Notes: generated by a model from the letters alone, not told the origin. Counted from the stretch's first letter, positions 2,716 to 46,003 are shown. The stretch: 64,000 nt of DNA from an uncultured Thermodesulfovibrio sp. (GCA_964542175.1 CAZITN010000001.1:8891-72890); one strand, 5' to 3'. Program-made: numbers and translations.

Positions 2716-2800
2716 GTATATTGGTAATTGTTAAGCCTAGACCTCAGCCTATTGTCTTTTTCTCTTATCCGCTACCTGCTACACGCTGTATCCTTAACCT
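2716..2800 (+). repeat. family-1 modular intergenic repeat, copy A (short, module order W1-W3-W5-W4)
   Basis: Words gtatattggtaattg, cctcagcctattg, cttatccgctacctgctacacgctg and tccttaacc align by eye to the copies at 11.2, 18.0, 28.9 and 45.9 kb. Confidence 0.7.
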
Positions 2801-5047
2801 CTAAGGCTTTCCATCCAGACTGTCTATCATGCCGCCATAGACCGCCTGGCCTATGGATATGCCTCCGTCATTCGATGGGATATTCCGGTGAGTGAATACC
2901 CTGAATCCCTTCTTGCCGAGTTCCGCTACAGTCCTTTCTGTGAGGGGATCATTCTGAAAGACCCCTCCGGAAAGACATACCAAATCATTACCACATCGCC
3001 CGGCAATATCTGCAGCGATGACGGCAAGGGTGTTAATGAACCGGGAAGGTATCCTCTTCCTGTCAACCTCATCTATGATACCATGAAAGAGAGGCCTCCA
3101 GTCGATAATCCTTCCTGTCACTGAATAGTCATAGTAGTCTCTGACTGAAGGGTCGTACCTGTCTTCAAGCATCATGGCTGCCTGGGCTTCATAATCGCAG
3201 ACCTGGAGGAGACCGATGATTGAGGATACTGCATCAAAGAGCCTTCCTGCTGAAGAACTGGGTGGCGAGTTGATCCTGTCCCTGTATGCCCGGTACAGTA
3301 TTGCAAGCTCCGTATCATTGAACTCAGAAGTGATGTGATTCATCGACTCCGGTATGTTTTCTCCGAAGAGGTCGAATAATATGGAGAGGGCCACCCTCCT
3401 TGGTTCCCTGACCGCCCTTTCTCCACCAATCAAAATGAGATGTCTGAAATGAAAAATCCTCTCAAAGCCGTCCAGCCGTGAGTTCAGAAATTCACCTCCC
3501 CAGAGTGTTCCGTCCTCTCCGTAGCCCGTTCCATCCCAGGCGATGCCTGTGACACTCTCGCTCAGACCATGTTCAGCCATGCAGGAGAGGATATGGGCGT
3601 GGTGATGCTGTAGCCCAATGGTTTTATGAGGGAAGTTCTTCAAAGCCCATTTTCTTGTAGAGTATCCTGGATGGAGGTCGTAAACCACTACATCCGGCTC
3701 AAAGGAGTAGAGACTGCAGAGGTCATTCACGATCGCCTCGAGGTTTTCCATGCTTTCAGGAGTATCCATGTCACCGATATGCTGACTGGGTATAATCCTG
3801 TCATCCATTCCGATAGACACGGTGTTCTTCTCATGGGCACCCAGGGCGAGGACCTTCCTTTTAAGCCTGAAGGGAAGCCTGACAGGCAGTGGGACATATC
3901 CCCTCGATCGCCTGATTATCTGTGGCAGAGCGGCCACAACCTTTACAACAGAATCGTCGCATCTCCTCCTGATAGGTCTGTCGTGCATTATGAAGGCATC
4001 GGCGAGACCTCCCAGCCTTTCAAGGGCTTCGTCATTGTCCTTGACAATTGGTTCGTCCGAGAGGTTTCCGCTTGTAGCAACGAGAGGGAAGGATGTTTCA
4101 GAGAGCAGGAGCAGATGAAGGGGAGAGTAGGGAAGGAAAGCTCCTACTCTTTCAAGCCCAGGAGCCGAAGACTCCAGGAGAGGCCCCTTCCTTTTAACCA
4201 GTACTATGGGACGGGCAGGGGAGAGGAGTATGGACTCCTCAAGCACGGTCGGGAGTGTATATTCTGCAAGTTCGGAAATACCCCTGAACATCACTGCAAA
4301 GGGCTTCAGGGACCGCCGCTTTCTTCTTCTGAGGGTGTTGACTGCTCCGTCATCAAGGGCGTTACATATCAGATGAAACCCTCCTATCCCCTTCAGAGCG
4401 ATTATCCCGCCTCTTGAAAGAAGCGATACTGCCTCCTTTATGGCATGCTTGCCTCTGCCGAGGATCTCCCCGTCACTATCAGTCAGGAATGCCTCAGGAC
4501 CGCAGAGGGGACAGGCATTGGGCTGGGCATGAAACCTCCGGTCGTCAGGGTTGGTGTACTCCCTTTTGCATTCAGGACACATAATAAAGTCTTTCATGGT
4601 TGTATTGGGACGGTCATAGGGTAACCGCTCAATTATCGTGAACCGGGGACCGCAGTTAGTACAGTTTATGAAAGGATAGCGATGGCGCCTGTCCGAGTGA
4701 TCAAGAAGTTCCCTCTCGCAATCAGCGCATGTAGAGATATCCGGAAGTATCAGGACCTCCGGAGTGCCGGACCTGTCGCTTTCCCTGATGCTGAACTTAT
4801 CATAGCCTGCCGGCACGAGAAACTCCGTTTCTTCATAGAAAATATGGGCAAGGGGAGGCTTTTCAGTGTGGAGCCTTTTCAGGAAGAGATCTATCTTTCC
4901 CCTGACTCCCTCAACCTCGATAGTGACCCCTGAGGTGTCATTCAGGACAAAGCCGGAAAGACCGAGGTCTTTTGCAGTTCTGTAGACAAAGGGCCTGAAT
5001 CCGACGCCCTGAACGGTTCCGTTAAGGACTATCCTGAGTCTCTGCAT
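2801..5047 (-). CDS. hypF: [NiFe]-hydrogenase maturation carbamoyltransferase HypF
   Basis: 748 aa. Acylphosphatase N-terminus (VQGVGFRPFVYR), two CxxC zinc-finger pairs, and YrdC-like and Kae1-like domains. Confidence 0.95.
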   Translation of the reverse strand: MQRLRIVLNGTVQGVGFRPFVYRTAKDLGLSGFVLNDTSGVTIEVEGVRGKIDLFLKRLHTEKPPLAHIFYEETEFLVPAGYDKFSIRESDRSGTPEVLILPDISTCADCERELLDHSDRRHRYPFINCTNCGPRFTIIERLPYDRPNTTMKDFIMCPECKREYTNPDDRRFHAQPNACPLCGPEAFLTDSDGEILGRGKHAIKEAVSLLSRGGIIALKGIGGFHLICNALDDGAVNTLRRRKRRSLKPFAVMFRGISELAEYTLPTVLEESILLSPARPIVLVKRKGPLLESSAPGLERVGAFLPYSPLHLLLLSETSFPLVATSGNLSDEPIVKDNDEALERLGGLADAFIMHDRPIRRRCDDSVVKVVAALPQIIRRSRGYVPLPVRLPFRLKRKVLALGAHEKNTVSIGMDDRIIPSQHIGDMDTPESMENLEAIVNDLCSLYSFEPDVVVYDLHPGYSTRKWALKNFPHKTIGLQHHHAHILSCMAEHGLSESVTGIAWDGTGYGEDGTLWGGEFLNSRLDGFERIFHFRHLILIGGERAVREPRRVALSILFDLFGENIPESMNHITSEFNDTELAILYRAYRDRINSPPSSSAGRLFDAVSSIIGLLQVCDYEAQAAMMLEDRYDPSVRDYYDYSVTGRIIDWRPLFHGIIDEVDRKRIPSRFINTLAVIAADIAGRCGNDLVCLSGGVFQNDPLTERTVAELGKKGFRVFTHRNIPSNDGGISIGQAVYGGMIDSLDGKP

Positions 5048-5393
5048 CGGAAGATTCCATCTCTATACGTTCGAGTATAAGATCCTTACCATTCAATAAC
5101 CTGACATCGGTGGAGCCACAGGATGGACATCTGAAGAGGGGGTTGGCATTTTCTGAGATTTCTGAGCAGGAGTTACACTTCACTTCAAGGGGTTCCATTA
5201 TTATCTCAAGGGTCGCCCGTGAGCAGACAGTATGTTCCCTGAAGGTCTCAAAGGCGGTCTGTAGAAGGTGGGGCACGATTCCGGATATTGCACCGGCCCT
5301 GATTACCACCCTTGTTACCGAAGATGCACCACTCTGCCGGACGTAGTCCTCGACTGTATCAAGTATGCTCTGGACTATGGAAAACTCATGCAT
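5022..5393 (-). CDS. hypA: hydrogenase nickel insertion protein HypA
   Basis: MHEFSIVQSIL N-terminus and CxxC...CxxC zinc site. Start moved to the internal ATG at 5393, which has GAGGT 8 nt upstream. Confidence 0.9.
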   Translation of the reverse strand: MHEFSIVQSILDTVEDYVRQSGASSVTRVVIRAGAISGIVPHLLQTAFETFREHTVCSRATLEIIMEPLEVKCNSCSEISENANPLFRCPSCGSTDVRLLNGKDLILERIEMESSDAETQDSP

Positions 5394-5459
5394 TGTTTTT
5401 GACCTCAACATTGCATGAACACAAGGTTCGGCAGGGGATCAATATATACAACAGGAAGA

Positions 5460-6464
5460 TCAACATATCCTCGGAAGAAGTTCCCCTGAAGGGGGTTCCA
5501 GTATCCTCCTGGTCCCGTAGGAACTCCTGAGCAGGACCCTTGCCCTCTCACCGGAGATTACCCTTCCTGCAACCCTGGCGTCCTTTCCGAGAGCGTCACT
5601 CTGCAGGATTTCAATAAATGCATCCGCGTCATCTTCAGGAAGGGCTGCAATGAACCTTCCCTCTGAGGCAAGCTGTAATGGGTCCATGCCGAGGAGTTCA
5701 CAGATGCCCTTCACTGCATTCTTGAGAGGGATGAACTCCTCATCCATCTCTATCTCAACACCAGAGGCCGCGGCCCACTCATTCAGGACTGCTGCCAGCC
5801 CCCCCCTTGTGGGGTCTCGCATGGCGTGAATGTCAGGACTGATTTCAATTACCTTCTGAATCACCGGCCAGAGGGACGCACAGTCGCTCTCAAGATCGAG
5901 ATCAAACCCCAGTCCTTCCCTTTCAGCAAGAATGCAGGCACCGTGATCTCCCATGGTCCCTGACACGATGATGACATCACCCGGTGAGACTCTGGAGGAG
6001 GAGAGGCCTTCCCTCTCAATCCTGCCGATACCGGCCGTGTTTATGACAATGCCGTTCATGCTGCCCCTCGGCATGATCTTTGTGTCACCAGTCACCACGG
6101 CAACACCTGTCTTGGCCGCCTCCTCACTCATGCTCTGGACGATGATACTGAGGTCTTTAAGGGAGAACCCCTCCTCTATGACAAATCCTGCCGAGAGATA
6201 GAGGGGCCTTGCCCCTGTAACGGAGAGGTCGTTTACAGTCCCGGCAACAGAGAGTTTTCCGATGTTTCCACCCCTGAAGAAGGAGGGGGATACAGTAAAG
6301 GAATCGGTGGTGAAGGCGACTTTGCCATCAATGCGGGGGAGGACAGCCGAGTCTTCCAGGGAGTCAAGGACAGGGTTTGAAAGATATCGCCTGAAGATGC
6401 CCTCTATCAGCTCCCTGCTCTCTTCGCCGCCTCCGCCATGGGCAAGAAGGATGGTTCCCTTCAT
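5460..6464 (-). CDS. hypE: hydrogenase expression/formation protein HypE
   Basis: PurM-like fold and N-terminus LAHGGGG. The canonical C-terminal PRIC motif is present. Confidence 0.95.
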   Translation of the reverse strand: MKGTILLAHGGGGEESRELIEGIFRRYLSNPVLDSLEDSAVLPRIDGKVAFTTDSFTVSPSFFRGGNIGKLSVAGTVNDLSVTGARPLYLSAGFVIEEGFSLKDLSIIVQSMSEEAAKTGVAVVTGDTKIMPRGSMNGIVINTAGIGRIEREGLSSSRVSPGDVIIVSGTMGDHGACILAEREGLGFDLDLESDCASLWPVIQKVIEISPDIHAMRDPTRGGLAAVLNEWAAASGVEIEMDEEFIPLKNAVKGICELLGMDPLQLASEGRFIAALPEDDADAFIEILQSDALGKDARVAGRVISGERARVLLRSSYGTRRILEPPSGELLPRIC

Positions 6465-9958: not shown

Positions 9959-10022
9959 ATGATAAAGGTTCCTTTCGTGTCAGTGTTTCCGCTACTTGTC
10001 TTTTGTTACTTTATATTTTATC

Positions 10023-10592
10023 CTATCTAACGAGCCTTTTTCCTGCCTCATAAGCCTCACTGAGGGCGGTGGGATGCCCTTTGATGGCACCCTGGGCGTC
10101 AATCTCCTTGAAATAAAGGGTCTCGTGCTCAGGGACGTTTATCGTCCTGAAAAAGGCCGTAGCCGTGGCTCCGCCACAGTCGAATCCCACCTGTCTCTTC
10201 ATGCCGCCGACCATCAGGAGAAGCCCCTTCCTCCCGTAAGGACCGGGCTCTATGGGTTTTTTCAGAAGATACTTTTCACACCAGAAGGACTGGCATCTGT
10301 CGATAACCGTCTTTATCTGAGCGGAAAGGCTGAAAAAGAATATGGGAGAGGCGAGTATGACCCTGTCAGCATCACGGATAGCCTTGTAGATATCGTTCAT
10401 CTCATCATCTATGACACATTTCCCTGTCTCATCACAGCCGCCGCAGTTCAGACAGGGGGAGATATTCATGACTGATGGGCGGAAGAGGATCACCTTGTGA
10501 CCCCCTTCTGCAACAGCCCTGGTTGACTCGTTCAGGAGCAGTTCCGTATTCCCGGCCACTCTCGGACTTCCAAGTAATGCTACTACCTTCAT
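10023..10592 (-). CDS. iron-sulfur flavoprotein (Isf) / FMN reductase family, second paralog
   Basis: MKVVALLGSPRVAGNT and Cys cluster CLNCGGCDETGKC. Start set at ATG 10592 with AAGGAG 5 nt upstream; the track start is a GTG 2 codons earlier. Confidence 0.8.
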   Translation of the reverse strand: MKVVALLGSPRVAGNTELLLNESTRAVAEGGHKVILFRPSVMNISPCLNCGGCDETGKCVIDDEMNDIYKAIRDADRVILASPIFFFSLSAQIKTVIDRCQSFWCEKYLLKKPIEPGPYGRKGLLLMVGGMKRQVGFDCGGATATAFFRTINVPEHETLYFKEIDAQGAIKGHPTALSEAYEAGKRLVR

Positions 10593-10708
10593 TGTCACTC
10601 CTTGTCATATTAAAGGTGAACTCCCATTCGTGACAGTTCCACCAACATGAAAGAGATCTGCCGCCTTCAGGCGCCTGGCTGAGATATCATTCCAAAGGGA
10701 AAGATGAT

Positions 10709-11203
10709 CTAATCAATCCTGCTGAACATCTCCCTCTTTGCACCGCAGACCGGACAGGTTTCAGGTGCCTCACCCTCCACAGTATTGCCGCATACCTGGC
10801 AGACGTAGTAGTCAACATCCTCATTACTGCCCAGGTTTTCAAGGGCCTTCCTGTAGAGGTCTGCGTGGATTTTCTCCACCTCATTGGCAAAGTTGAAGCT
10901 CCTGAGGGCACCTTCATTACCCTCGGATTTTGCATCCTCGATCATCCGTGGATACATCTTCTGGAACTCATATGATTCGCCGTTGATCGCCTTCTCGAGG
11001 TTTTCCCTTGTGCTTTTGATTCCTCCCAGTTCCCTGAGATGGTTATGGGCATGGATGGTCTCTGCCTCTGCGGCTGCCCTGAAGAGTTTTGCCACCTGGG
11101 GGTAGCCCTCCTCATCGGCCTTCTTTGCAAAGGCAAGGTACTTCCTGTTTGCCTGTGATTCACCGGCAAAGGCATCCTGAAGATTCTTCTCTGTTTTGGA
11201 CAT
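10709..11203 (-). CDS. rbr: rubrerythrin
   Basis: Diiron four-helix-bundle ExxH motifs plus a C-terminal rubredoxin-like CQVCG...CPVCG. Confidence 0.93.
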   Translation of the reverse strand: MSKTEKNLQDAFAGESQANRKYLAFAKKADEEGYPQVAKLFRAAAEAETIHAHNHLRELGGIKSTRENLEKAINGESYEFQKMYPRMIEDAKSEGNEGALRSFNFANEVEKIHADLYRKALENLGSNEDVDYYVCQVCGNTVEGEAPETCPVCGAKREMFSRID

Positions 11204-11231
11204 GTTACACCTCCTGAAGAAAGATTGTTGT

Positions 11232-11354
11232 TGATATACAGGTATATTGGCTATTAGGTTGTTCAGCCTATTCTGTTTCCCTACACGCTATACGCTATCC
11301 GTTTCAGGCTTTTTTCTTAGCCTCAAACCTTAGCCTTAACCTTAACCTTAACCT
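11232..11354 (+). repeat. family-1 modular intergenic repeat, copy B (W1-W3-W5-W4; ends in tandem CTTAAC units)
   Basis: Words ggtatattggctattaggttgttcagcc, ccctacacgctatacgctatccg and cttagcctcaaaccttagccttaaccttaaccttaacc. Confidence 0.75.
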
Positions 11355-11357
11355 CAG

Positions 11358-11486
11358 TTATTCCTGCCCGATCAGTTCCATGGGCTGGCCGCAACAGACC
11401 AGTTCCCCCCCACCGGCCCTTGTTACCACTACTTCATTGCCACAGACATTACACCTGTACTTCTCGCCTTCCTTTTTTACCGGCAT
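11358..11486 (-). CDS. desulforedoxin (42 aa), not in ORF track
   Basis: SD GGAGGTG, then ATG. It translates to MPVKKEGEKYRCNVCGNEVVVTRAGGGELVCCGQPMELIGQE, with the Dx signature CxxC...CC. Confidence 0.85.
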   Translation of the reverse strand: MPVKKEGEKYRCNVCGNEVVVTRAGGGELVCCGQPMELIGQE

Positions 11487-11574
11487 CTGATTCACCTCCT
11501 TTTTTTGTATTCGGAATTGCCAGAGAACCTGTACCGGTATCTGGCAGTTAAAGAAATTCTTCCTCTGAAAAACG

Positions 11575-12030
11575 TCAGGTTTGTGACACAGTTACCTGGA
11601 CTGGCTCGCTTATCCAGGTCCCGTGAAGATTACAATGTTCAATCGCTTCAAGCCTTCCAGACTTTTTAAGTCTTATCCTGAATACCGCCTCGGATGGAGA
11701 CATTCCACCTATATAATGCTTTTCCTTTGCCACCTTCTGACCGTCTACAAGCAGTTGTATCTTTGTTATCCAGTGCTCAGGCGTAGAGGGATGCTCTTTC
11801 ATGAAGCCTACCCGGACTTTTATATCAAACCATTCATTTGCCTTTATCCCGGAAGGCACATCTACCTTTGGGACGTGTTTCTGCTCAAGAACGGTAGGGT
11901 TTGACCTATTAGTCAGCCTGTTCAGTTTCCCGGACCTTGATTTTCCACGTTCAGAAGCCGGCGTCCCTCCAGCAGTTAATATACCTGCCAATACCAGAGG
12001 AATTGTTTTCATAAAATCGCGTCTTTTCAT
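11575..12030 (-). CDS. Tat-signal superoxide reductase-like protein (desulfoferrodoxin ferrous-iron-binding domain)
   Basis: Twin-arginine leader MKRRDFMKTIPLVLAGILTAGG. SOR ligand motifs are EQKHVP, HPSTPEHWI and HCNLHGTW. Confidence 0.8.
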   Translation of the reverse strand: MKRRDFMKTIPLVLAGILTAGGTPASERGKSRSGKLNRLTNRSNPTVLEQKHVPKVDVPSGIKANEWFDIKVRVGFMKEHPSTPEHWITKIQLLVDGQKVAKEKHYIGGMSPSEAVFRIRLKKSGRLEAIEHCNLHGTWISEPVQVTVSQT

Positions 12031-12782
12031 AATTGACCTCTTTTCTTTTTTGGCAAGCCAATGGTTGCCAGATAGACTGCTGTTTCTTCTTTCCCATCCA
12101 CTCCTATAATATCATTTACCCAATCATCAAAAAAAGCACCAATAGCACAGCAGCCAAGTCCTGCTGACTCTGCTCCCAGGTAAAGGTTCTGGCATATATG
12201 CCCTGCATCGAGATAAATATACCTGTAAGACCTCTGTCCGTACTTCCATCGGGACCTTTGAATTACCGCGGTCCAGATAAATGTTACCATGCTTCTGGCG
12301 ACCATAGACTGACTTAAAGCAGCCATTGCGAGATCATCTGAAAAATTCCCCCTTCGCAAGAGTTCAAGATCAAAGTTGCCTACCCGGAAATGATATATTC
12401 CCTGTTGCAGTGACTCAACCGATCTGACCATCAAATAGGTTTCTATTGGATAAAGTGCACCTGCTGAAGGTGCTGTCCTGAAAAGTGTATCTCCGTATCT
12501 GCCCGTTACTCCCTGGGTTGACCAGAGCAGGAATCCCATGTCTTCAAGAGACAGGATTGCATCAGGATCATAGGAGCGCCTGGAGCGGCGATTCAGCAGT
12601 GCATCCGAAAGGGTGTCTTCATATTTAGCGAGGTCCACCCGGGGCAAGCTGAACACTGACTCAGGGGACCTGTATGTCTTGAACTGCTCAGGCCGGTTCT
12701 CCCAGTCAAGGGAGTGTCCTCCCATCCTTTCAGGGTCATATTTGGTCTCTTCCTGGAATCTGTCGCCGATATTGTCAGCCAT
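12027..12782 (-). CDS. SagB-type dehydrogenase / nitroreductase family protein
   Basis: 251 aa. It has the typical N-terminus DRFQEETKY...W..RP..FKTY and a nitroreductase-fold C-terminus (YLDAGH, CAIGAF). Confidence 0.75.
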   Translation of the reverse strand: MADNIGDRFQEETKYDPERMGGHSLDWENRPEQFKTYRSPESVFSLPRVDLAKYEDTLSDALLNRRSRRSYDPDAILSLEDMGFLLWSTQGVTGRYGDTLFRTAPSAGALYPIETYLMVRSVESLQQGIYHFRVGNFDLELLRRGNFSDDLAMAALSQSMVARSMVTFIWTAVIQRSRWKYGQRSYRYIYLDAGHICQNLYLGAESAGLGCCAIGAFFDDWVNDIIGVDGKEETAVYLATIGLPKKKRGQL

Positions 12783-12836
12783 TGGTCATTCTTGAAAGAG
12801 GGGACAGGTGCAGCCTGCTGCACCTGTCCCTGCTGT

Positions 12837-13454
12837 CTACTGCAATGCCTCGTAAACCTTGCCTACGAGATCAGCCGATGGTTTCAGTGTCTTGTCTCCC
12901 TCATCGTTCCACTGGGCAGGGCAACCCTCGTCAGCATGCTTTGAGAGGTGAAGGTTCGCCTTGAACTTTCTCATGAGTTCGTCAATATTCCGGCCCATGT
13001 TATAATAATTGACTTCAGAGTTCATAATCGTGCCTTCAGGGCTTATTATGAAGGTGCCCCTCAATGCAAGGCCTGTCTCTTCGTCATATACCCCGAACAT
13101 GCTGGAAACATTCCCGGTAGGGTCGGCTCCCATGGGATACTTGACCTTCTCGAGAAGTTTCTCCTCCCTCTGCCACGCAAGATGAACGAACTGCGTGTCG
13201 GTGCTGACAGTGACCACCTCGGCTCCCATTTTCTTGAAACGGTCATACTGCTCTGCCAGAGCAGCAAATTCCGTTGCTCAGACAAAGGTAAAATCTGCCG
13301 GATAGAAGAAGAGTATTGTCCACTTACCGGCCTTTTTTGCCTTCTTCAGAGAGAACTTGCCAAAATCTCCCTTGGTTGGCTCATAGGTGTCCAGTTCAAA
13401 GTCCGGAACCTTCTGTCCAACCCTCAGCCCGCAACAGATCTCTTCATAGTTCAT
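12837..13454 (-). CDS. 2-Cys peroxiredoxin (AhpC/Prx1 type) with in-frame UGA at the peroxidatic position; putative selenoprotein (205 aa)
   Basis: ATG 13454 has an SD GGAGGAAG. The N-terminus ends ...WTILFFYPADFTFV-TGA(13278-13280)-ATEFAALAEQYDRFKKMGAEV, in frame with track ORF 12837..13229. The resolving-Cys motif EGCPAQW is present. Confidence 0.75.
13246..13266 (-). promoter_or_regulatory. candidate bacterial SECIS hairpin for the Prx UGA
   Basis: The mRNA reads UGCUGCUCU-GGC-AGAGCAGUA (7 WC pairs, plus G-U and U-A). It starts 11 nt after the UGA and has a G-containing apical loop. Confidence 0.55.
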
Positions 13455-13525
13455 GACAGTCTTCCTCCTTTAGAATGTTTTGGCTCATCCTTACGGATGA
13501 AATTCACAGGCACAACAGGCGCAGT

Positions 13526-13900
13526 TCATTCAGTCACCGTAATCTCCTTGCTTGCCTCCCAAGTGCCGTGAAGATTGCACCTTTCAAGCACCCTCAGTGT
13601 AGATGTTCTATGCTTACCACCTTTGACAAGAGTAATAGTCACTTCAGGCTGTGCAAATACAGGAGTGAGGTCAATCCTTGCATAAAGGTTCTGGCCGGAG
13701 TAAAGTTCGATCCACTGGATATGGTGTCCCTCTTCATTGGGATGGGGAATCTCTCCCACTTTGATCTTGACCTGAAAGGGCTCGCCTGCCTTTACAGTGT
13801 CTGGGCACTCAATAACAGGTGTGTGCTTCTGTTCAAGCGCTGTCTTGTTTGCCGGGTCTGCTGCCCTGTTGATTCCACAAAATAAACTCTTCTCTGACAT
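13526..13900 (-). CDS. 1Fe superoxide reductase (neelaredoxin-type SOR)
   Basis: 124 aa. Motifs EQKHTPVIE, HPNEEGHHIQWIEL and CNLHGTW. There is no N-terminal Dx domain. SD is AAGGAGGTG. Confidence 0.88.
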   Translation of the reverse strand: MSEKSLFCGINRAADPANKTALEQKHTPVIECPDTVKAGEPFQVKIKVGEIPHPNEEGHHIQWIELYSGQNLYARIDLTPVFAQPEVTITLVKGGKHRTSTLRVLERCNLHGTWEASKEITVTE

Positions 13901-14046
13901 CTTTACACCTCCTTGATTCAGTAGTTATTAAATTTGGCTGTTTAAGATATTCTCCGCTTCACCAGTTTAGCATTTCAACCATTATCCAATCGCCTTTTGC
14001 CTGCCGCCTGCTTTTAGATATTCCTGTTGAGTCATTGTTTTCAAGA

Positions 14047-14526
14047 CTACCCAATCCTCTCGAATTCAGCCTTGGACGCATTGCACACAGGGCACTTCCA
14101 GTCATCAGGTAATTCATTAAAAGGAGTGCCTTCAGCATCTTCCTTGTAGAGCCATTTACACATTGCACACCGCCAGAGAATCCCATCTTCCCGGTCTCCC
14201 TCTTTTTCAACCACCTCCCATCCTTTTTTCTCCCACTCTTCGACCGGAGGAGGGAGATAGCCTGAATATATCTCTTTGTCCCTTGCATCTTCAACCTTCA
14301 CAACTACTGTTATCCCATCTTTCTTAACAGTGTATCCCCAGTCAAAATTATCCTCTGTATCAGGTGCGGTCAGTTTTGCAGAAAACTCTATAGTATCTCC
14401 CTTTCTTTTCACCTTTGACCAGGAATAACAACACTTAGCAACGGATGTGCATCCACACTTTCCCTTTTTCAACTCAAGCCCGTCAATACTGAACCCACCG
14501 GGTATCTTCTCTACCTTTACTCCCAC
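14047..14526 (-). CDS. fusion protein: unknown ~115-aa N-terminal domain + C-terminal rubredoxin domain
   Basis: The C-terminus WRCAMCKWLYKEDAEGTPFNELPDDWKCPVCNASKAEFE is a rubredoxin. The N-terminal domain, including CGCTSVAKCC, is not recognised. Start set at GTG 14526 with GGAGGA 4 nt upstream. Confidence 0.7.
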   Translation of the reverse strand: MGVKVEKIPGGFSIDGLELKKGKCGCTSVAKCCYSWSKVKRKGDTIEFSAKLTAPDTEDNFDWGYTVKKDGITVVVKVEDARDKEIYSGYLPPPVEEWEKKGWEVVEKEGDREDGILWRCAMCKWLYKEDAEGTPFNELPDDWKCPVCNASKAEFERIG

Positions 14527-14617
14527 ATGGTCCTCCAAAATCGGATAAAACAAGTCTTAAAATCCCGGATTAAAGAGGCCAGGATGAACCTGACCTTCTT
14601 TCAGTCCTTACCCCATA

Positions 14618-14749
14618 CTAAGCCGGCTCAAAGGCATCTTTGGGGGCATTACAAACAGGGCACGTCCAGTCATCAGGCAACTGGTCAAAGGAAGTCCCTT
14701 CCTTCTCTTCATCATAGACATAACCGCAGACCGTGCATCTGTACGACAT
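14618..14749 (-). CDS. rubredoxin (43 aa), not in ORF track
   Basis: SD GGAGGTG. It translates to [43 protein letters not shown]. It lies directly downstream of the flavodiiron gene. Confidence 0.88.
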
Positions 14750-14761
14750 CAAAACACCTCC

Positions 14762-15979
14762 TTAATTAAAATTTTCATGATACTCCTTGACAGCCCTGGC
14801 AAACTCTCTTCCGAAGTCATAGCACTTTTTCTCATCCTCATCAGAAGGGCGGTACTGGATCTGTATGCCAGGCTCCATCACATCCAGTTTCATATTCTGA
14901 AATTCATTGTAAAGCCACTTGACTGCGCCTCCACCCCAGCCGTAACTACCGAAGGCACCGGCTATCCTGTTTGTAGGCCTGAGCCCCCGAAGGTGTGTCA
15001 TGAATTCAGCCACCGAGGGGAAGACCTCGTTGTTGAGGGTAGGGGAGCCTACGAGGATTCCCCTTGACTTCCAGAACTCCTTGATGGCAACACTCATAGG
15101 GGTCGCCCTCAACTTGATCACCTTGCAGTCCACCCCCTCGTCCTTGATCCCCTGCATTATTGGTTGTGTCATTATTTCGGTGCTGTGCCACATTGTATCG
15201 TAGATGATCGCCACCCTGAGGCTTGCCTTGCCATCTGCCATTTCAAGATACATCTCAACGGGTCTCATGGGTTCCTTCCGCCAGATTATCCCGTGATCAG
15301 GGGCTATCATGTCTATCTCTAGGCCAAGCTCCTGGATCTGCTTTATCTTGCTCTTGATAAGCCTCCCGAAGGGCATCAGTATGTTTGCATAATAGTCAAT
15401 CACGGAATCTTCAAGTTCTGCATGGGAAGCACATTCGATAAATTCATCATCAAACCGTGCAGTAGTTGCCAGATGTTGGCCAAAGGCATCTTGGGATATG
15501 AGCAGCCTGGCCTCTTTCACATAGGTCATCATGCTGTCCGGCCAGTGGAGCATGGGTGTCTCGATAAACTGGAGTGTATACCTGCCGATAGTGAGTTCAT
15601 CGCCAGTCCTGACCACCTTGATGTTCCACCTTGAAATATCAAAAAACCTCTCCATCCCCTGCTTCCCCCGTGCAGTGGTATAAATGGTTGCCTGGGGCAT
15701 CAAGTCCATGAAGATACCGAGTGCCCCCATGTGGTCGTTTTCCACATGATTCACTATCAAGTTTTTTATCCTTGAAAAGTCCACGAGGCTTTTCACATTG
15801 GCCAGTCCGATCTCCGCAAAGTCGTGTTTTACAGTGTCAACAAGAGTGATCTCATCGTCGAGTATAAGATAGTTGTTATAGGTCGTTCCATGGGGAGTGA
15901 CATACCCGTGGAAATCCCTTACAGCCCAGTCAATCGCTCCAACCCAGTAGATACCGTCTTTGATTTCAATAGCCTTCAT
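14762..15979 (-). CDS. flavodiiron protein (FprA / rubredoxin:oxygen oxidoreductase type)
   Basis: Metallo-beta-lactamase-like N-domain with HVENDH, and a flavodoxin-like C-domain. SD is GGAGGT. Confidence 0.92.
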   Translation of the reverse strand: MKAIEIKDGIYWVGAIDWAVRDFHGYVTPHGTTYNNYLILDDEITLVDTVKHDFAEIGLANVKSLVDFSRIKNLIVNHVENDHMGALGIFMDLMPQATIYTTARGKQGMERFFDISRWNIKVVRTGDELTIGRYTLQFIETPMLHWPDSMMTYVKEARLLISQDAFGQHLATTARFDDEFIECASHAELEDSVIDYYANILMPFGRLIKSKIKQIQELGLEIDMIAPDHGIIWRKEPMRPVEMYLEMADGKASLRVAIIYDTMWHSTEIMTQPIMQGIKDEGVDCKVIKLRATPMSVAIKEFWKSRGILVGSPTLNNEVFPSVAEFMTHLRGLRPTNRIAGAFGSYGWGGGAVKWLYNEFQNMKLDVMEPGIQIQYRPSDEDEKKCYDFGREFARAVKEYHENFN

Positions 15980-16100
15980 TCAATAACCTCCATGCGAAGA
16001 ATTCTGAATCCTTATGTTCCGGGGCTAATCTCAGAATGCCGGACAATCCTGGCTTCCGCCCGGCAGCGTAATCCCCACCTCTGACCCTCTTACTGTATTC

Positions 16101-16592
16101 TCAGCCCTCCACTATGCTCAACTCTTCCCACATGAACCAGTTGCCGGTATCCTCAAGAAAACTGTAGGTGTTGTTCAGCAACTGATAGTGCCTCTCCTCC
16201 TCTTTGATGAGCACCTCGAAGAGCCTTTTCTCCTTTTCATCTACAGCCGCCGCAAGAGCCTCCTCGTAAAAATGAAACCCCTTCTTTTCCATCTCAAGGG
16301 CGAGCCGTAGAGCCTCTTTCTCATCTGATCTTGCCTCTATACGGCTCATCATCTGGTCCTTCAGATCTGAAAAGACTGTCCTTACATCACCGATACACTG
16401 GACATGAGGATCTATCTCAAGACCCTTCAGTATCTCCTCAAGCAGTCTCAGGTGCCGTGCCTCATCCCTTATCAGGCTCTCGAACATCTTCCTGCCCATA
16501 GGGTGGGAGGTCCTTGAAGCTGCCTCTTTATAAAATTTCATTGCATCCGTTTCCATCTTCATCGCTGATTCCACTGCCTTTGAGACTGCCAT
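16101..16592 (-). CDS. ferritin-like diiron protein (rubrerythrin family, no rubredoxin domain)
   Basis: Two ExxH pairs (EARHLRLLEE, EERHYQLL). SD is GAGGAGGT. Confidence 0.75.
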   Translation of the reverse strand: MAVSKAVESAMKMETDAMKFYKEAASRTSHPMGRKMFESLIRDEARHLRLLEEILKGLEIDPHVQCIGDVRTVFSDLKDQMMSRIEARSDEKEALRLALEMEKKGFHFYEEALAAAVDEKEKRLFEVLIKEEERHYQLLNNTYSFLEDTGNWFMWEELSIVEG

Positions 16593-16655
16593 GCTGACCT
16601 CCTCTTTGATTTATGCCGGTGTTTGTGAAATCCCGTCAGGCCGGCCTGTTACTGT

Positions 16656-16832
16656 TCAGTTTATGTATTTTTCATGATTGTAGACAACGTATCCGCAAAG
16701 CTTGCATCGAGTCTGATCTTCATCACTCCATATCTCGATTTCCACTCCGCACTGGGGGCATGTAAGCTCCGTCGGAAAGGGCACACTCCTGGCAGAACAC
16801 GCCGGTTTGTCATTAAACTCTCTGCCCTTCAT
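16656..16832 (-). CDS. small zinc-ribbon protein (58 aa), not in ORF track
   Basis: SD GGATGGAGGAAGG. It translates to MKGREFNDKPACSARSVPFPTELTCPQCGVEIEIWSDEDQTRCKLCGYVVYNHEKYIN. The start overlaps the stop of the upstream 150-aa gene. Confidence 0.55.
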   Translation of the reverse strand: MKGREFNDKPACSARSVPFPTELTCPQCGVEIEIWSDEDQTRCKLCGYVVYNHEKYIN

Positions 16833-17265
16833 TTGCCTTCCTCCATCCTTCTGCCCTGAGGCGTTCCATCCTCTCGATGCCCCAGGATTTTATCCTTTCA
16901 ATATAGCCCATTGGATCAGTCTTTGCCATTCTGACGATCTCTTCCCTCTCAATGGCACTGTCGATATGGTCACCTGGATAGATACCACGCCACGTAGCGA
17001 GCCCTTCGTCGAAAAGAATCTCCGGGGTCAGGGGAGTACCGGCAAGACGGGGAGTTTTGAGTGACGCAAACTCAGCTATCTCCATGTCATACTCTATCAC
17101 CCAGCCGTTATCGGCAATCATGGATGATGAGTCAATGTTAATCTCACCTGAGCAGCCGGGACAGTAGAGCCTGCTGATAACCTCTGGTGGCATGATCTCA
17201 TCCCTGAAATTGAAACTCGCCCTTCTGGAGCCACAGCTGCAGCCCATTGAATACTCCACACACAT
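16813..17265 (-). CDS. hypothetical protein (150 aa) with N-terminal CxC...CxxC motif
   Basis: SD AGGAGGT lies 7 nt upstream of the ATG. Motifs are GCSCGS...YCPGCSG. No family was recognised. Confidence 0.6.
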   Translation of the reverse strand: MCVEYSMGCSCGSRRASFNFRDEIMPPEVISRLYCPGCSGEINIDSSSMIADNGWVIEYDMEIAEFASLKTPRLAGTPLTPEILFDEGLATWRGIYPGDHIDSAIEREEIVRMAKTDPMGYIERIKSWGIERMERLRAEGWRKANEGQRV

Positions 17266-17325
17266 TTTATATACCTCCTGGACATTTTCTCAAATAACAA
17301 ACGATTTGTCAACCTGAAAATTATT

Positions 17326-17433
17326 TTATCCCTGTTTCTGCATGGTACCGGTAGAGCCACACTCAGGGCACTTCTTAGGTTTGCACCTTCCTTCCTTGGT
17401 TGCACCACATTTGTCGCACTTGAATACCGCCAT
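17326..17433 (-). CDS. rubredoxin-like/zinc-ribbon miniprotein (35 aa), not in ORF track
   Basis: SD GGAGGTG. It translates to MAVFKCDKCGATKEGRCKPKKCPECGSTGTMQKQG. It starts 1 nt after the Fur-family stop codon. Confidence 0.55.
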   Translation of the reverse strand: MAVFKCDKCGATKEGRCKPKKCPECGSTGTMQKQG

Positions 17434-17434
17434 C

Positions 17435-17836
17435 TCATTCACCTCCTTTCTTGCATTTTTCACATATACCATAGAATTCGATATGGTTTCCCAGGACATC
17501 AAAACTCTTCCTTGCCTCGTCCGGAATGAGAATCTCGAAATCCAGATCTACATCAACTATGGTCTTGCATCTCAGACAGATAAGGTGATTATGTGGATGA
17601 ATATTAGGATCGTATCTCTTCCTGTCCGGGTCAATGGTGAGTTCCAGTATCTGTCCCCTTTTCCTCAATGTCTCCAGGGTGTTGTAGACCGTTGCAAAGG
17701 ACATTGTAGGAAACTTCTCCTTTACTGAACTGTATATATCCTCTGCCGATGGGTGTGATGTATTGCCATCAAGATATTCAAGTATCGCAAGCCTCTGGGG
17801 TGTAAGTTTGAGTCCTATTTCACGATACCTTTCCAT
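17435..17836 (-). CDS. Fur family transcriptional regulator (PerR-like by context)
   Basis: Winged-helix N-terminus (LTPQRLAILEYL). HHH-type metal site (HPHNHLIC) and CxxC pairs (CLRC...CEKC). SD is AAGGAG. Confidence 0.85.
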   Translation of the reverse strand: MERYREIGLKLTPQRLAILEYLDGNTSHPSAEDIYSSVKEKFPTMSFATVYNTLETLRKRGQILELTIDPDRKRYDPNIHPHNHLICLRCKTIVDVDLDFEILIPDEARKSFDVLGNHIEFYGICEKCKKGGE

Positions 17837-17846
17837 AGAATCTCCT

Positions 17847-17899
17847 TTATAATAGTTATTAATAAAATTATAATATCACATTAGAATCATTATTGTCAA
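17847..17899 (-). promoter_or_regulatory. candidate sigma70 promoter plus AT-rich Fur/PerR-box-like operator of the perR-like operon
   Basis: The minus strand reads TTGACA-N18-TATTAT. It is followed by TAATAACTATTATAA, which resembles the 7-1-7 box TTATAATnATTATAA and sits just upstream of the SD. Confidence 0.45.
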
Positions 17900-17965
17900 G
17901 TAAAAAATGTAAATACAGGACTAAGTTACCGTAATGCTGCACGGATCATGGAGACCGGAGGGAAA

Positions 17966-18080
17966 GCTTAAGGATAAGGTTTAAGTCAAGGCGTAGAAAC
18001 ATGCGTATAGCGGATAGGGTGCAGGGTCACAGAACAGGCTGAGTAACCTGATAATCAATACACCAATATACAATACTACA
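17966..18080 (-). repeat. family-1 modular intergenic repeat, copy C (inverted orientation, W1-W3-W5-W4 order)
   Basis: The reverse complement reads gtatattggtgtattgattatcaggttactcagcc...ccctatccgctatacgc...ccttgacttaaaccttatccttaagc. Confidence 0.75.
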
Positions 18081-18097
18081 ATGAGCAATGAGAGCCT

Positions 18098-18763
18098 TCA
18101 GGTCTCAAAAGCAAAGCAATGGATGTTTGCACCCTGGGAAAGGGCCTTCCTGGCATATTTGGTCTCAAAGACCCCATTTGTTTTGGCAGAACCCGGTCTG
18201 AAACCTGCCTCCAGAAAAGCCTCCCTGATCACTTCTGCGTAGCCTTGATGATCTGTGGCAGTGACGGCTATGCCGTCTTCAAGGAGCCTTTCCTTGAGGA
18301 GCCTTGTGAAGGAAGGATTGATCAGCCGTCTCTTGTGATGCCTTTTTTTGGGCCACGGGTCAGGAAAGAGGATATAAACTCCTGAAAGAGAGTGGGGTGG
18401 AACAAACTCCCTGAGAAAAAACGCTGCTTCATGCCTGGCTATTCTGATGTTATTAAGCACTGTCTGGGCGGTTGTATTGTATCTCTGGATCTTCCTCAGA
18501 AGCTTGGCAATCCCTGGGAGGTATATTTCAACCCCAATGTAGTTGAACTCGGGATGTTTTACTGCCTGATCAAAGAGAAAATAGCCGCTTCCAAACCCTA
18601 TTTCAACAAAAGTGGAAGCCTCTCTCCCAAAGAGGTCATTGAGATTAACCGGTGGCAGTTCAGGTATGAGAAGTCCTGGAAGGAGTTCCTCCAGGGCAGC
18701 CTTTTCGGCGCCGCTCATCCTCCCGGACTTTCTTCCAAAGGTCTTTACTTTTCTATACAGCAT
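18098..18763 (-). CDS. trmB: tRNA (guanine-N7)-methyltransferase
   Basis: SAM-binding motif VEIGFGSG and FPDPWPKKRHHKRR. Confidence 0.9.
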   Translation of the reverse strand: MLYRKVKTFGRKSGRMSGAEKAALEELLPGLLIPELPPVNLNDLFGREASTFVEIGFGSGYFLFDQAVKHPEFNYIGVEIYLPGIAKLLRKIQRYNTTAQTVLNNIRIARHEAAFFLREFVPPHSLSGVYILFPDPWPKKRHHKRRLINPSFTRLLKERLLEDGIAVTATDHQGYAEVIREAFLEAGFRPGSAKTNGVFETKYARKALSQGANIHCFAFET

Positions 18764-22900: not shown

Positions 22901-22950
22901 GATATTTAATTATCACATAAAAAAAGGCGGGGGGTCAAACAGAAGGGTGG

Positions 22951-28819: not shown

Positions 28820-28861
28820 AAATTCCTTTATTTAAGCAAGGATTATCTGTTAAATTAAAAA

Positions 28862-29026
28862 GGCAGCGTGGAGCATGGAGCGGGTAGCGGATTGGGAGAG
28901 AAAAAATAGGCTAAGGCTAAGGTTTAAGGTCAAGGTTAAGCCTGAGTAACCTGATAACTTAGTAACCCAATGACCAATGACGGTCTTTACCCAATACCCA
29001 TTAACCAATATACCAATATACTAATA
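28862..29026 (-). repeat. family-1 modular intergenic repeat, copy D (long form W1-W2-W3-W4-W5, inverted orientation)
   Basis: The reverse complement aligns along its length with copy E. Shared words are tatattggtatattgg, taaagaccgtcattggtcattgggtta, gttatcaggttactcaggc, ttaaccttgaccttaaaccttagcc and ccgctacccgct. Confidence 0.8.
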
Positions 29027-29036
29027 AGCAAATACC

Positions 29037-34171: not shown

Positions 34172-34277
34172 GTTCTTGTATCATAAATAAGAATTACGAT
34201 TGAAGTCAAGAAATCTCTTTGTGTATAATAAATATCTTTATTCGTGCATATTCCATACTTCCTGAAGGAGAAAGTGA

Positions 34278-42903: not shown

Positions 42904-42960
42904 GCAGGCCGGTCTATTTATTAACTGTCTCGTAATAATTTCAGCACCTAGGGACAGGTT

Positions 42961-43107
42961 GCAGGCAGTGCTGGTGAGGGCATCAGATTAGCGATACCTT
43001 TAGTCCCTTTTAACGATGTAAAGGTCATGGCACTAAGCCTCACAGGGTTAAGCCCTGTGTAATTAAAGCCCATCGCATTAATCTGTGCCCGAAACAGTAA
43101 TGCCTGC
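42961..43107. ncRNA. candidate structured RNA / structured intergenic element (family not recognised)
   Basis: Nested helices: gcaggca/tgcctgc; gggca-cagatta-gcgat/atcgc-taatctg-tgccc; accttta/taaaggt; cacaggg/ccctgtg. It lies between convergent genes. Confidence 0.35.
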
Positions 43108-43219
43108 TATCTATACGTAAAGCATGCAGTGTGTAATTTCTACTATGAGACTTTTAATACCTCAATGTTGCACAAAGATGAGATCCGGCTTTGTGTTACA
43201 ATTTAAGCAACTGCAAGGT

Positions 43220-44446
43220 CTATTGAGAAGGACTGGCCAGATCAAAGGCATCGTGGAGGACCCGGACGGCAAGTTCAGTGTATTTTGAATCTATGACACA
43301 GGAGACCTTTATCTCCGATGTGCTTATCATCTTGATGTTTATCCCCTGGTCTGCGAGGGTCTGAAACATCTTGGCAGCCACGCCTGAATGAGTCTTCATA
43401 CCAACACCCACTATGGAGACCTTGGCAATATTTTCATCAATTGAGACCCCCTTTGCACCAAGTCCGTTCACGATTTCGTCTGTGAGGGGCCTGGCCTTGG
43501 GAAGGTCCGTCTTGGGGATGGTAAAGGATATATCCGTTGATTTACCATCACTGCTTATATTCTGAACGATCATATCCACCACTATACTGGCATCGGCTAT
43601 CGTCTTGAAGAGATGGCCGGCGATGCCGGGCCTGTCAGGCACCCCCAGTATTGTGACCTTGGCCTGGTTCTTGTCGTAGGCGACTCCAGAAACAAGCACC
43701 TGCTCCATATTGCTGTCCTCCTTCACAACGAGTGTCCCCGGTGCATCCACGAAGCTGGATCTTACCACGAGGGGAACATTGTATTTCATGGCAAATTCTA
43801 CAGACCGGGTCTGGAGCACCTTGGCTCCAAGGCTTGCAAGCTCGAGCATCTCCTCGTAGGAGATCCTTTCCAGTTTCCTTGCCTCAGGGACTATGTTGGG
43901 GTCTGTAGTATACACTCCCTCCACATCAGTGTATATCTCGCAGAGGTCTGCATCGAGGGCAGAGGCTATTGCAACTGCAGTCAGATCAGAGCCCCCGCGT
44001 CCAAGGGTTGTTACATCACCTTCATCCTCGGTGATTCCCTGAAATCCGGCTACCACGACTATATATCCCTCATCGAGGGCACGCTTTGCCTTGTCTCCGG
44101 AGATCCTCGCAATCTTGGCCTTTGTATGAACCGTATCTGTTATGATTCCCACCTGTCTGCCTGTGAGGGCGATGGCCTTGTGGCCGAGTTCCTGGATCGC
44201 CATCGCAGTGAGGGCACTCGTTATGCGCTCACCCGTTGAAAGCAGAAGGTCCATCTCCCGTTCATCAGGATTGGATGATACCCGCTGGGCAAGCTCAATC
44301 AGCTTGTCCGTCTCTCCGGCCATTGCAGAGACCACAACGACGACCCTGTTGCCGTCTCTGGCGGTATTCACCACTCTCTCGGCGACCTTCTTTATACGCT
44401 CAATGTCTGCAACAGAAGTCCCACCGTATTTCTGTACAATCAACAT
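43220..44446 (-). CDS. lysC: aspartate kinase
   Basis: [10 protein letters not shown]-terminus and two C-terminal ACT domains. SD is GAGGTG. Confidence 0.93.
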
Positions 44447-44650
44447 ATCTCAATCACCTCTTCTTTGATGAACCTGAAATTAAGCGACTCTTCTGGTGAA
44501 ATCTCCGGAAATCTTCCTGAGGGACGTCAGAATACCAACCATCAGTCTTCCACCCATCGGCTGAACAAATTTTCTCTTTTGTAAATCTCACATTTATTGC
44601 GTTAAATGGGGTTACGAAACGCCTCTACATGTCCTGCTTAAGATAAATTC

Positions 44651-45859
44651 TCAACTCAGGATGAAATGATCCATCAACTGGAACCCCTTATCAAAAATCG
44701 TTATACCATCAACCCCGGCAATCCTTTCATCAAAGCCGTTTATCTTGTTGTCCTCATCCTTCCTGCTGTCATAGATTACAAAGGGGACAGGCTCGACTGA
44801 ATGGGTCCTTATCTCCAGAGGGGTAGGGTGGTCAGGGAGCAGAAGGATCCTGAACTCCTCAAGAGACCGGGCCCCTCTCAGCACGGTTCCAACCACCAGG
44901 GCGTCAAAATCCTCAATCGCCTTGATCTTGTCTTCCACCTTGCCTCCGTGTCCTGCCTCATCAGGGGCTTCCACATGGACATAAGTGAAATCATGCCTTT
45001 CAAGGGACTTGAGGGCATACTCCGCCTTTCCGGTGTAATTCGTGTCAAGATAACCGGTCACCCCCGGTACATCAAGGATTTCGAGCCCGGCATATATACC
45101 AAGACCCTTTGTGAGATCCACGGCGCTCACGAGGGAGCCCGTTATTCCGTACTTTTCCTGGTAGGTCGGCATCGATGGCTTTCTCCCCTGTCCCCAGAGC
45201 CAGATACTGTTGGCCGGTCTCTTGCCCTCGGAAACCCGCTTCCTGTTTACCTCATGGCCTTCAAGGATACCAACGGACTCCTTCATCAACTGCCGGAGTG
45301 TCTCCTCTCCTTCACCGCAGGGCAGGTATTCAGTTATCTCCTTCCCAAGAATATCGTGGGGAGGAATACATTCAGCCCTTTCCTTCCCCCCGTGCCAGAC
45401 CATCAGGTGCCGGTAGCTCACACCGGGATAAAAGGAGAAATCCCCTCCGCCAAGTCTTGAGTTGATCTCTTCAATAAGGATTCTTGCCTCATCTGATGAT
45501 ATATGTCCGGCACTGTAATCCTCCATTATCGCCCTGTCCCTTGTCCGGTTGTACTTGAGCGTGACCAGATTGCACCGGAATGCAATATCATCAGGACCAA
45601 GCTCGATCCCCATACTCGCTGCTTCGAGGGGTGCCCGTCCCGAATAGTAGAGGGAAGGGTCATACCCCAAAATGGAGAGGTTCGCCACATCAGAGCCGGC
45701 CGTAAAACCTTCAGGGATAGTCCGGACCATCCCGGGCCTTCCGGTCCGGACAAGCCTGTCCATATTCGGAGTAAAGGCTGACTGGAGCGGCGTCTTTCCT
45801 CTAAGAGACTGCACAGGACGGTCTGCCATCCCGTCGCCTATGAGTACGATATATTTCAT
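44651..45859 (-). CDS. cofactor-independent phosphoglycerate mutase family protein (ApgM type); by context possibly non-canonical homoserine kinase
   Basis: MKYIVLIGDGMADRP N-terminus and metalloenzyme superfamily motifs. It sits between lysC and thrC. Confidence 0.75.
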   Translation of the reverse strand: MKYIVLIGDGMADRPVQSLRGKTPLQSAFTPNMDRLVRTGRPGMVRTIPEGFTAGSDVANLSILGYDPSLYYSGRAPLEAASMGIELGPDDIAFRCNLVTLKYNRTRDRAIMEDYSAGHISSDEARILIEEINSRLGGGDFSFYPGVSYRHLMVWHGGKERAECIPPHDILGKEITEYLPCGEGEETLRQLMKESVGILEGHEVNRKRVSEGKRPANSIWLWGQGRKPSMPTYQEKYGITGSLVSAVDLTKGLGIYAGLEILDVPGVTGYLDTNYTGKAEYALKSLERHDFTYVHVEAPDEAGHGGKVEDKIKAIEDFDALVVGTVLRGARSLEEFRILLLPDHPTPLEIRTHSVEPVPFVIYDSRKDEDNKINGFDERIAGVDGITIFDKGFQLMDHFILS

Positions 45860-45867
45860 GGGTAATC

Positions 45868-46003
45868 GTTATTGGTATATTGGTGTATTGGTTATTGGCT
45901 AAAGACCATCACTGGTCATAGGGTTAATAAGTTATCAGGTTACTCAGCCTTAAGCTTGACCTTAACCTTAGCCTCAACCTATCTTTTCTCCCTACCCGCT
46001 GTC
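45868..46003 (+). repeat. family-1 modular intergenic repeat, copy E (long form W1-W2-W3-W4-W5)
   Basis: Words attggtatattggtgtattggttattgg, taaagaccatcactggtcatagggttaataa, gttatcaggttactcagcc, ttaagcttgaccttaaccttagcc and ccctacccgct. Confidence 0.8.

Follow-up and report, generated by a model that had tools for sequence, protein, structure and literature searches.

A 64,000-nt stretch of DNA from an uncultured Thermodesulfovibrio sp. (GCA_964542175.1, CAZITN010000001.1:8891-72890; the window) carries five related intergenic segments, A to E, which form one genuine repeat family. We propose, giving the proposal about an even chance, that the family is a lineage-specific, dispersed, non-palindromic mosaic repeat that spreads by being copied into the spacers between the stop codon of one gene and the start codon of the next, where it would probably be transcribed as a leader. 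An earlier, sequence-only reading of the window had described the segments as a dispersed, modular, intergenic family; this description was supported, and all five segments were present at the positions it had given. The sequence examined amounted to some 81 kb from this genome and some 60 kb from the sister lineage; it revealed a sixth copy, F, on the same contig about 5 kb to the left of window position 1, and two further copies at loci L007 and L011. The local density of about one copy per 13 kb would, by extrapolation, suggest hundreds of copies genome-wide.

We searched the window for the words from which the sequence-only reading had built the family, allowing up to three mismatches. The results showed 5 matches for W1 (0.04 expected), 3 for W3 (0.05 expected), 7 for W4 (0.00 expected) and 8 for W5 (0.16 expected), all of them within A to E, so the common vocabulary was borne out with 3-8 matches per word against fewer than 0.2 expected. 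Copies D and E, said to align along their length, were 89% identical over 80 nt without gaps and 88.5% identical over 122 nt with gaps. Tandem Repeats Finder (TRF) detected micro-arrays with periods of 6, 7 and 8 inside the segments, and a profile hidden Markov model (HMM) built from seven copies recovered A to E exactly (E-values 1e-17 to 1e-28), with no degenerate or weaker extra copies in the window. Taken together, the word counts, the D-E identity, the TRF arrays and the profile HMM exclude a low-complexity coincidence, one of the outcomes by which the sequence-only reading would have fallen.

A gapped alignment of the five window copies and two copies from a related metagenome-assembled genome (MAG) revealed a collinear backbone within a composite of 100-190 nt. 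On the strand led by W1, (TATTGGTR)n 8-mers come first, followed by an optional W2, TTATCAGGTTACTCAG (W3), an optional (CCTTAR)n hexamer array, a pyrimidine-rich linker (CCTRTYTTTTCTCCCT), the W5 7-mers (CCGCTAY)n, a T-run and, optionally, a further hexamer array. Read in the sense of the downstream gene, the same element runs from an A-run through GCGTATA-like 7-mers, a purine linker, GGTTAA/GGCTAA 6-mers, GGCTGAGTAACCTGATAA and an optional 32-nt hairpin insert to the ACCAATAT 8-mers and the ATG, and this strand is 58-68% purine. The optional 32-nt insert is W2, which has a 5-bp hairpin and is confined to D and E, as had been claimed. W4-type hexamer arrays occupy either or both of two slots, before and after W5, with 0-6 units each: the first slot is used in D and E, the second in B and C, and both in A and L007. 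The differing slot accounts for the two architectures previously distinguished, and the picture of shuffled words likewise gives way to a single backbone with optional parts. Copy F, outside the window, is the exception, since its order of W5-W4-W5-W1 without W3 represents some true modular variation. The ends of the element are ragged and differ between copies.

At seven of the eight loci (A, B, D, E, F, L007 and L011), the element takes up the whole spacer as far as the downstream start codon, beginning at the upstream stop codon or, in D, at a conserved promoter region, and W1 is the module closest to the ATG. Within the window, the W1 end adjoins a start codon in four of the five copies. 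This arrangement was absent from the sequence-only reading, as were the strand asymmetry and the gain, replacement and remodelling of copies between strains. About 25 spacers in the window are at least 60 nt long, and five carry the element. The claim that the copies are strictly intergenic held in that all of them lie between genes, but copy A overlaps the hypF stop codon (2801-2803). Copies A, B and E are on the + strand and C and D on the - strand; a replication-linked orientation was ruled out, as a single region of uniform GC skew contains copies in either orientation. The downstream genes (hypB, rubrerythrin, ribF, apgM, and genes for DUF362, PK_C-like and AMP-ligase proteins) have no common function, which ruled out a regulon. 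Copy F lies between an upstream NMT1-like gene and the downstream DUF362 gene, L007 between a deacetylase gene and the PK_C-like gene, and L011 between a POR-gamma gene, the last 7 codons of which it overlaps, and the AMP-ligase gene.

Comparison of strains at about 90-96% nucleotide identity showed that copies are gained, replaced and remodelled. Copy D (28857-29036, - strand) lies in the divergent thiL-ribF spacer and ends directly at the ribF ATG (29037). It comprises an A-run and W5 (28857-28896), a linker (28896-28911), the W4 hexamer array (28910-28941), W3 (28940-28957), W2 (28958-28991, with the hairpin GACCGTCATTGGTC on the - strand) and W1 (28990-29027). The copy begins right after '...CTGTTAAATTAA', at the border of a conserved thiL/ribF control region (28820-28856) that lies outside the element and is almost identical, up to the junction, in the window, L055 and L054. 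The site is empty in both relatives: L055 (RibF 95% identical) has '...CTGTTAAATTAAGAGGGCTGTCGATAAAAGATG' instead, and the outgroup species L054 (RibF 71% identical) has a 57-nt spacer. D is a recent gain, because the site is empty in L055 and L054 and its flanks are conserved to the junctions. The gain replaced about 18 nt, including the GAGGG Shine-Dalgarno sequence of ribF. D is also chimeric, with residues 53-173 matching E (88.5%) and residues 27-79 matching F (87%); its promoter-distal part matches F and L011, and the remainder matches E.

Copy C (17950-18097, - strand) occupies the spacer between trmB and a fur-like gene and is inverted relative to trmB-to-fur transcription. Its modules are a hexamer run (17966-17992), W5 (18003-18026), W3 (18037-18054) and W1 (18055-18080), followed on the W1 side by the tail ATGAGCAATGAGAGCCT (18081-18097), which adjoins the stop codon of trmB (18098-18100). 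L056 and L057, of the sister lineage, have 95 unrelated nt at this site, compared to 192 nt in the window, and the flanks are conserved, with the fur promoter on one side and the trmB 3' end on the other. The tail looks like the start of a donor-locus gene carried along with the copy, which would explain why C is inverted and not beside a live start codon; the putative donor locus would carry CCAATATACAATACTACAATGAGCAATGAGAGCC. Copying of C from D, both of which have ATGAGAG after W1, was not supported, as C is without W2 and W4 and its other flank is unlike D.

The presence/absence polymorphism at D and C and the many dispersed copies, at the density given above, would suit a non-autonomous transposable element of the MITE (miniature inverted-repeat transposable element) or REPIN type, which a transposase from another genomic locus would move in trans. 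However, the copies have neither terminal inverted repeats nor terminal hairpins, no target-site duplication distinguishes the filled from the empty D and C sites, both ends are heterogeneous between copies, insertion was accompanied by deletion or replacement of resident sequence, and the gene calls, which extend over most of the window and its flanks, include no transposase domain. We therefore regard transposition as improbable. The ragged ends and the lack of terminal inverted repeats, target-site duplications and terminal hairpins point to recombination rather than a transposase. New copies arise at new loci by copy-and-replace of the resident spacer, as where D replaced about 18 nt and C 95 nt, and copies fill whole stop-to-start or promoter-to-start spacers; existing copies gain or lose array units and swap segments with one another. 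In our proposal of a recombining mosaic repeat, spread would proceed through illegitimate recombination or gene conversion, together with replication slippage.

Copies A and B are remodelled between lineages. Copy A (2705-2803, + strand) fills the spacer from hypF (stop codon 2801-2803) to hypB (start codon 2702-2704) and consists of W1 (2717-2730), a short hexamer run (2731-2749), a pyrimidine linker (2750-2766), W5 (2767-2787) and a second hexamer run (2788-2803), with a GGAGG Shine-Dalgarno sequence between W1 and the hypB ATG. Copy B (11204-11357, + strand) lies between a desulforedoxin gene (stop codon 11358-11360) and a rubrerythrin gene (start codon 11201-11203) and contains W1 (11231-11251), a degenerate W3 (11252-11268), a linker (11269-11282), W5 (11283-11301), a T-run (11302-11316) and a hexamer array (11316-11357; period 6, 4.8 copies). 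The element is present at both sites in both lineages, yet only 44% of alignment columns are identical at A and 66% at B, with large indels, compared to 90-93% identity of the flanking genes and about 80% identity at their third codon positions. The number of W1 units at the A and B sites is 6-8 in L056 versus 2-3 in the window, and GGTTAA units number 5 in L056 and 4 in both L057 and L058, the window having 3 plus variants.

Copy E (45860-46007, + strand) lies between thrC (stop codon 46008-46010) and apgM (start codon 45857-45859). It contains W1 (45868-45899), W2 (45900-45931, with the hairpin GACCATCACTGGTC), W3 (45932-45949), W4 (45950-45979), a linker (45980-45993) and W5 (45994-46003), and no Shine-Dalgarno sequence precedes the apgM ATG. 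Between the window and the sister lineage (L042, L008), E showed 4 differences in 151 nt and no indels, whereas 79 of 778 third codon positions of thrC and apgM differed, so that E changes about 4-fold more slowly (Fisher P = 0.0016). In the outgroups L043 and L063 (ApgM 76-77% identical), W2 to W5 are missing, and a CCAATA-type 8-mer array of at most 8 units and 0-5% G is kept directly before the apgM ATG, which no Shine-Dalgarno sequence precedes. L045 (74% ApgM identity) has a normal Shine-Dalgarno sequence before apgM and no array.

These behaviours bear on the possibility that the family is functionless, slippage-prone DNA, with arrays that grow by replication slippage, are spread and homogenised by gene conversion and are tolerated in stop-to-start spacers. 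The unit-number polymorphism and large indels at A and B, the ragged ends, the unrelated downstream genes, the lack of structure or signal motifs and the general turnover of spacers in the population all fit such DNA. On the other hand, the slow, indel-free change of E and the persistence of an 8-mer array before the Shine-Dalgarno-less apgM across species at 76-77% protein identity speak against it, and the module order recurs at no fewer than eight loci, which slippage alone cannot yield. We consider this explanation unlikely, though it retains appreciable weight. The evidence for constraint, drawn from comparative data, consists of just two observations, the slow change at E and the array persistence before apgM.

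We found no internal or terminal inverted repeats in a repeat search of the copies, and minimum free energies compared with dinucleotide shuffles on both strands gave z-scores of -2.4 to +1.1, with no significant fold. The position in 5' leaders, and the small W2 hairpin of D and E, whose pairing survives the change of A-T to G-T on one strand, would be compatible with a structured non-coding RNA or riboswitch-like leader family. However, the fold energies did not differ from those of shuffles on either strand, orthologous copies differ by large indels, the downstream genes are unrelated, and Rfam scans at the gathering threshold and at E <= 1 returned no match in the window other than tRNA-Gly. 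Structured RNA was thus ruled out by the fold z-scores and the two Rfam scans, and we give it hardly any remaining probability. Coding of short peptides was also ruled out, by stop codons in all three sense frames of every copy.

Scans for a sigma-70 promoter (-35/-10 hexamers, 16-18 nt spacing) or an intrinsic terminator (GC-rich hairpin plus T-run) common to the copies found neither; each copy gave 0-2 weak, non-homologous matches, no more than shuffles. These results bear on a portable promoter or operator cassette acting at the DNA level, in which the W1 units (TATACT/TATACC every 8 bp) would serve as -10-like boxes or the 6-, 7- and 8-bp arrays as cooperative regulator sites. Tandem short direct repeats do act as operators elsewhere, for example arrays of heptads to which ribbon-helix-helix proteins bind. 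The distance from W1 to the start codon downstream is 8-38 nt, with a Shine-Dalgarno sequence in between where it is long, and the genome has starts of a leaderless type, in which a -10 box precedes the ATG by 8 nt. Apart from the absence of a shared sigma-70-type promoter, however, the TATAC unit of copy A runs into the Shine-Dalgarno sequence and leaves no space for transcription to start, the spacing and number of units differ freely among strains, three array types would require three binding proteins, and the conserved thiL/ribF control region upstream of D is already promoter-like. We regard such a cassette as quite unlikely.

Returning to the proposed leader, we compared the 40 nt before the ATG in copies D, E and F and both apgM outgroups with those of 32 other genes. 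The former contained 0-5% G and no Shine-Dalgarno sequence, and the latter averaged 22% G (sd 8, minimum 7). That the element is co-transcribed with its downstream gene, forming an unstructured leader or a spacer between cistrons, would follow from the location of copies between co-directional genes without terminators or, in D, directly downstream of the ribF control region. Function is the least secure step of the explanation, and its parts are offered as hypotheses. The nearly G-free W1 array beside the ATG may act as a structure-free leader supporting Shine-Dalgarno-independent initiation in D, E and F, and the AAGG-rich hexamer arrays farther upstream, which resemble the 5' part of the AAGGAGG Shine-Dalgarno sequences of this genome, could be weak ribosome-docking sites. 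A bolder version, which we hold to be unlikely, is a mobile 'leader cassette': a module spread by recombination that overwrites the native Shine-Dalgarno spacer with a G-free leader and an AAGG docking array and thereby switches the initiation mode.

Several points weigh against the proposed spread and leader role. W1 is not needed for initiation in A, B, L007 and L011, because a normal Shine-Dalgarno sequence is retained after W1 in these copies. The common orientation of six of the seven copies between co-directional genes is only suggestive (two-sided P = 0.125). The low divergence of E could alternatively reflect a recent recombinational sweep rather than selection. Spacer segments unrelated to the family were also replaced between strains, so turnover is general in this population, in keeping with the dimorphic loci known from other species (PMC2884548). 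Both the transcription of the elements and any effect on translation are what we infer.

The genome shows a further type of start: several genes (e.g., 22901-22925 and 34172-34195) lack a Shine-Dalgarno sequence and carry a -10-like box (TGTGATAAT, TATGAT) 8 nt ahead of the ATG, which suggests that leaderless mRNAs are common in this organism.

Other spacers also varied. Between apgM and the aspartokinase gene, some 190 nt (44467-44660) are absent in L042, where 3 nt separate the two genes. The core of this segment (44534-44624) shares 72% similarity with a stretch upstream of a PALP/NinF gene in L008 (3677-3766) and L042 (38-127); a second small repeat or a shared leader is possible, and Rfam gave no match. 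Between thrC and its upstream gene, L008 carries an insert of about 130 nt (1611-1751; window 47186-47195) that has no window counterpart and is unrelated to W1-W5. In the convergent spacer between the NrfD-like and aspartokinase genes (42904-43219), L042 has unrelated sequence in place of about 100 nt, next to 100 nt with about 96% conservation.

Copies B and C lie in a dense cluster of oxidative-stress genes (10000-18000), which comprises two desulfoferrodoxin/neelaredoxin-type genes, a desulforedoxin gene, two rubrerythrin genes, and genes for rubredoxins, an FprA-like flavoprotein, AhpC-like proteins, glutaredoxin and a Fur-family regulator. The second rubrerythrin gene, present in L057 and the window, has no gene call in the L056 scaffold. 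The fur/PerR-like promoter (17837-17915) has a near-consensus TTGACA, an 18-nt spacing and TATTAT with an extended TG; it overlaps an AT-rich palindromic Fur-box-like sequence (ATAATGATTCTAAT) and is conserved in the sister lineage.

The window also contains inverted repeats of other kinds. Two arms of about 175 nt (57650-57830 and 60095-60260), 84% identical, flank a 708-aa spermine-synthase-like gene (57934-60060). Each arm overlaps a small open reading frame without a Pfam match (57560-57817, - strand; 60048-60290, + strand), and the arms resemble a pair of small, oppositely oriented paralogous genes rather than a mobile element. A 44-nt inverted repeat (53232-53275 and 57512-57555), 84% complementary, brackets a MoxR/DUF58/transglutaminase operon just downstream of tRNA-Gly(CCC) (53108-53182).

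The distribution of the family was assessed with the W3 18-mer. Among 185,579 species representatives, real matches occurred only in 'Nitrospirae bacterium S139_46' (WFTX01), on 3 contigs, and 13 other matches were attributable to chance. All 22 matches in a metagenome contig collection, which evidently does not hold the window's own samples, and all 3 in a viral contig collection were likewise chance matches. The closest protein homologues are Nitrospirae or Thermodesulfovibrionales MAG proteins, and identical contigs occur in Joint Genome Institute (JGI) metagenomes 3300009408, 3300023503 and 3300023507. These three lines of evidence point to an uncultured hydrothermal-vent (Thermodesulfovibrionia-like) bacterium of the phylum Nitrospirota, also called Nitrospirae, as the host. 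The family itself appears to be lineage-specific, and our literature search turned up no account of repeats of this kind in Nitrospirae.

Most of what is known of dispersed intergenic repeats comes from cultured Proteobacteria, Firmicutes and cyanobacteria, and to our knowledge the well-studied families are almost all palindromic. The family described here is distinguished by being strand-asymmetric, built wholly of micro-tandem arrays and usually placed with its W1 end beside a start codon. Natural filled and empty alleles (ribF, trmB-fur) and remodelled alleles (hypB, rubrerythrin) make effects on expression testable. If the initiation-switching cassette were real, the mode of translation initiation would be a horizontally shuffled, strain-variable trait, and ribF here and in the empty-site strain would form a natural before/after pair. 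If the family is functionless, it offers a clean case of spacer replacement as a source of microdiversity. The repeats also break assemblies and could be used as strain markers; the L055 contig begins 99 nt upstream of ribF even though the site is empty there.

Finally, we compared the family with known repeat systems. The sequence-only reading had not recognised it as a REP (repetitive extragenic palindromic) sequence or BIME (bacterial interspersed mosaic element), ERIC (enterobacterial repetitive intergenic consensus), CRISPR or known MITE, and this judgement stood: the copies have no palindromes, terminal inverted repeats, target-site duplications or spacer-repeat array. Specifically, they contain no imperfect palindrome of about 126 bp, as in ERIC (intergenic repeat units), and no regular 24-48-nt repeats with unique spacers, as in CRISPR arrays, TRF and the repeat finder having shown 6-8-nt micro-arrays only. 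Like REPINs and MITEs, the family is short, non-coding, multi-copy and gained or lost between close strains. Unlike them, it has no inverted REP doublet that would form a hairpin, no terminal inverted repeats and no target-site duplication, its ends are ragged, and the resident spacer is replaced on acquisition (REPIN features: PMC3116915). The small variable segments, or dimorphic intergenic loci, reported from bacterial species by Touzain et al. (2010, PMC2884548) resemble C and D, where short segments are swapped between strains within a conserved flanking backbone; here, however, the incoming segments at different loci come from a single repeat family.

The E. coli BIMEs, which combine REP palindromic units (PU) with other motifs, and the pneumococcal BOX elements (boxA-boxB(n)-boxC) share more with the family: all are dispersed, extragenic and mosaic, with variable numbers of internal modules, and the collinear W1-W5 order with optional parts is a mosaic of this kind. 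Frequent presence/absence and replacement between strains, reported for PU-containing variable segments (PMC2884548), is a further likeness. The modules of BIME and BOX are palindromic and fold stably (the REP/BIME units are stem-loops of about 35 nt), whereas the family here is strand-asymmetric, without such units, without a significant fold and without evidence of a partner of the REP-associated tyrosine transposase (RAYT) type.

The short tandemly repeated repetitive (STRR) elements of cyanobacteria likewise place arrays of very short units between genes, with several different arrays adjoining, as do the period-6, -7 and -8 arrays here. The units here differ from what we take to be the canonical STRR heptamers, a TTGGTCA-like heptamer occurring once, in W2 only. 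STRRs consist of tandem units of about 7 bp in non-coding DNA between genes, including co-transcribed genes; their function is unknown, and roles in transcript stability or translational coupling have been proposed (PMC2670836). They are described as able to form hairpins (PMC2670836), a potential that the present family does not have. The host here also belongs to a Nitrospirae MAG lineage (Nitrospirota) rather than to the filamentous or heterocystous cyanobacteria, the 6-, 7- and 8-nt units are of unrelated sequence, and the arrays stand in a fixed order as a 100-190-nt composite that is itself dispersed. Overall, STRR arrays and the mosaic extragenic repeats BIME and BOX are the nearest analogues, and the traits shared with them are generic ones.

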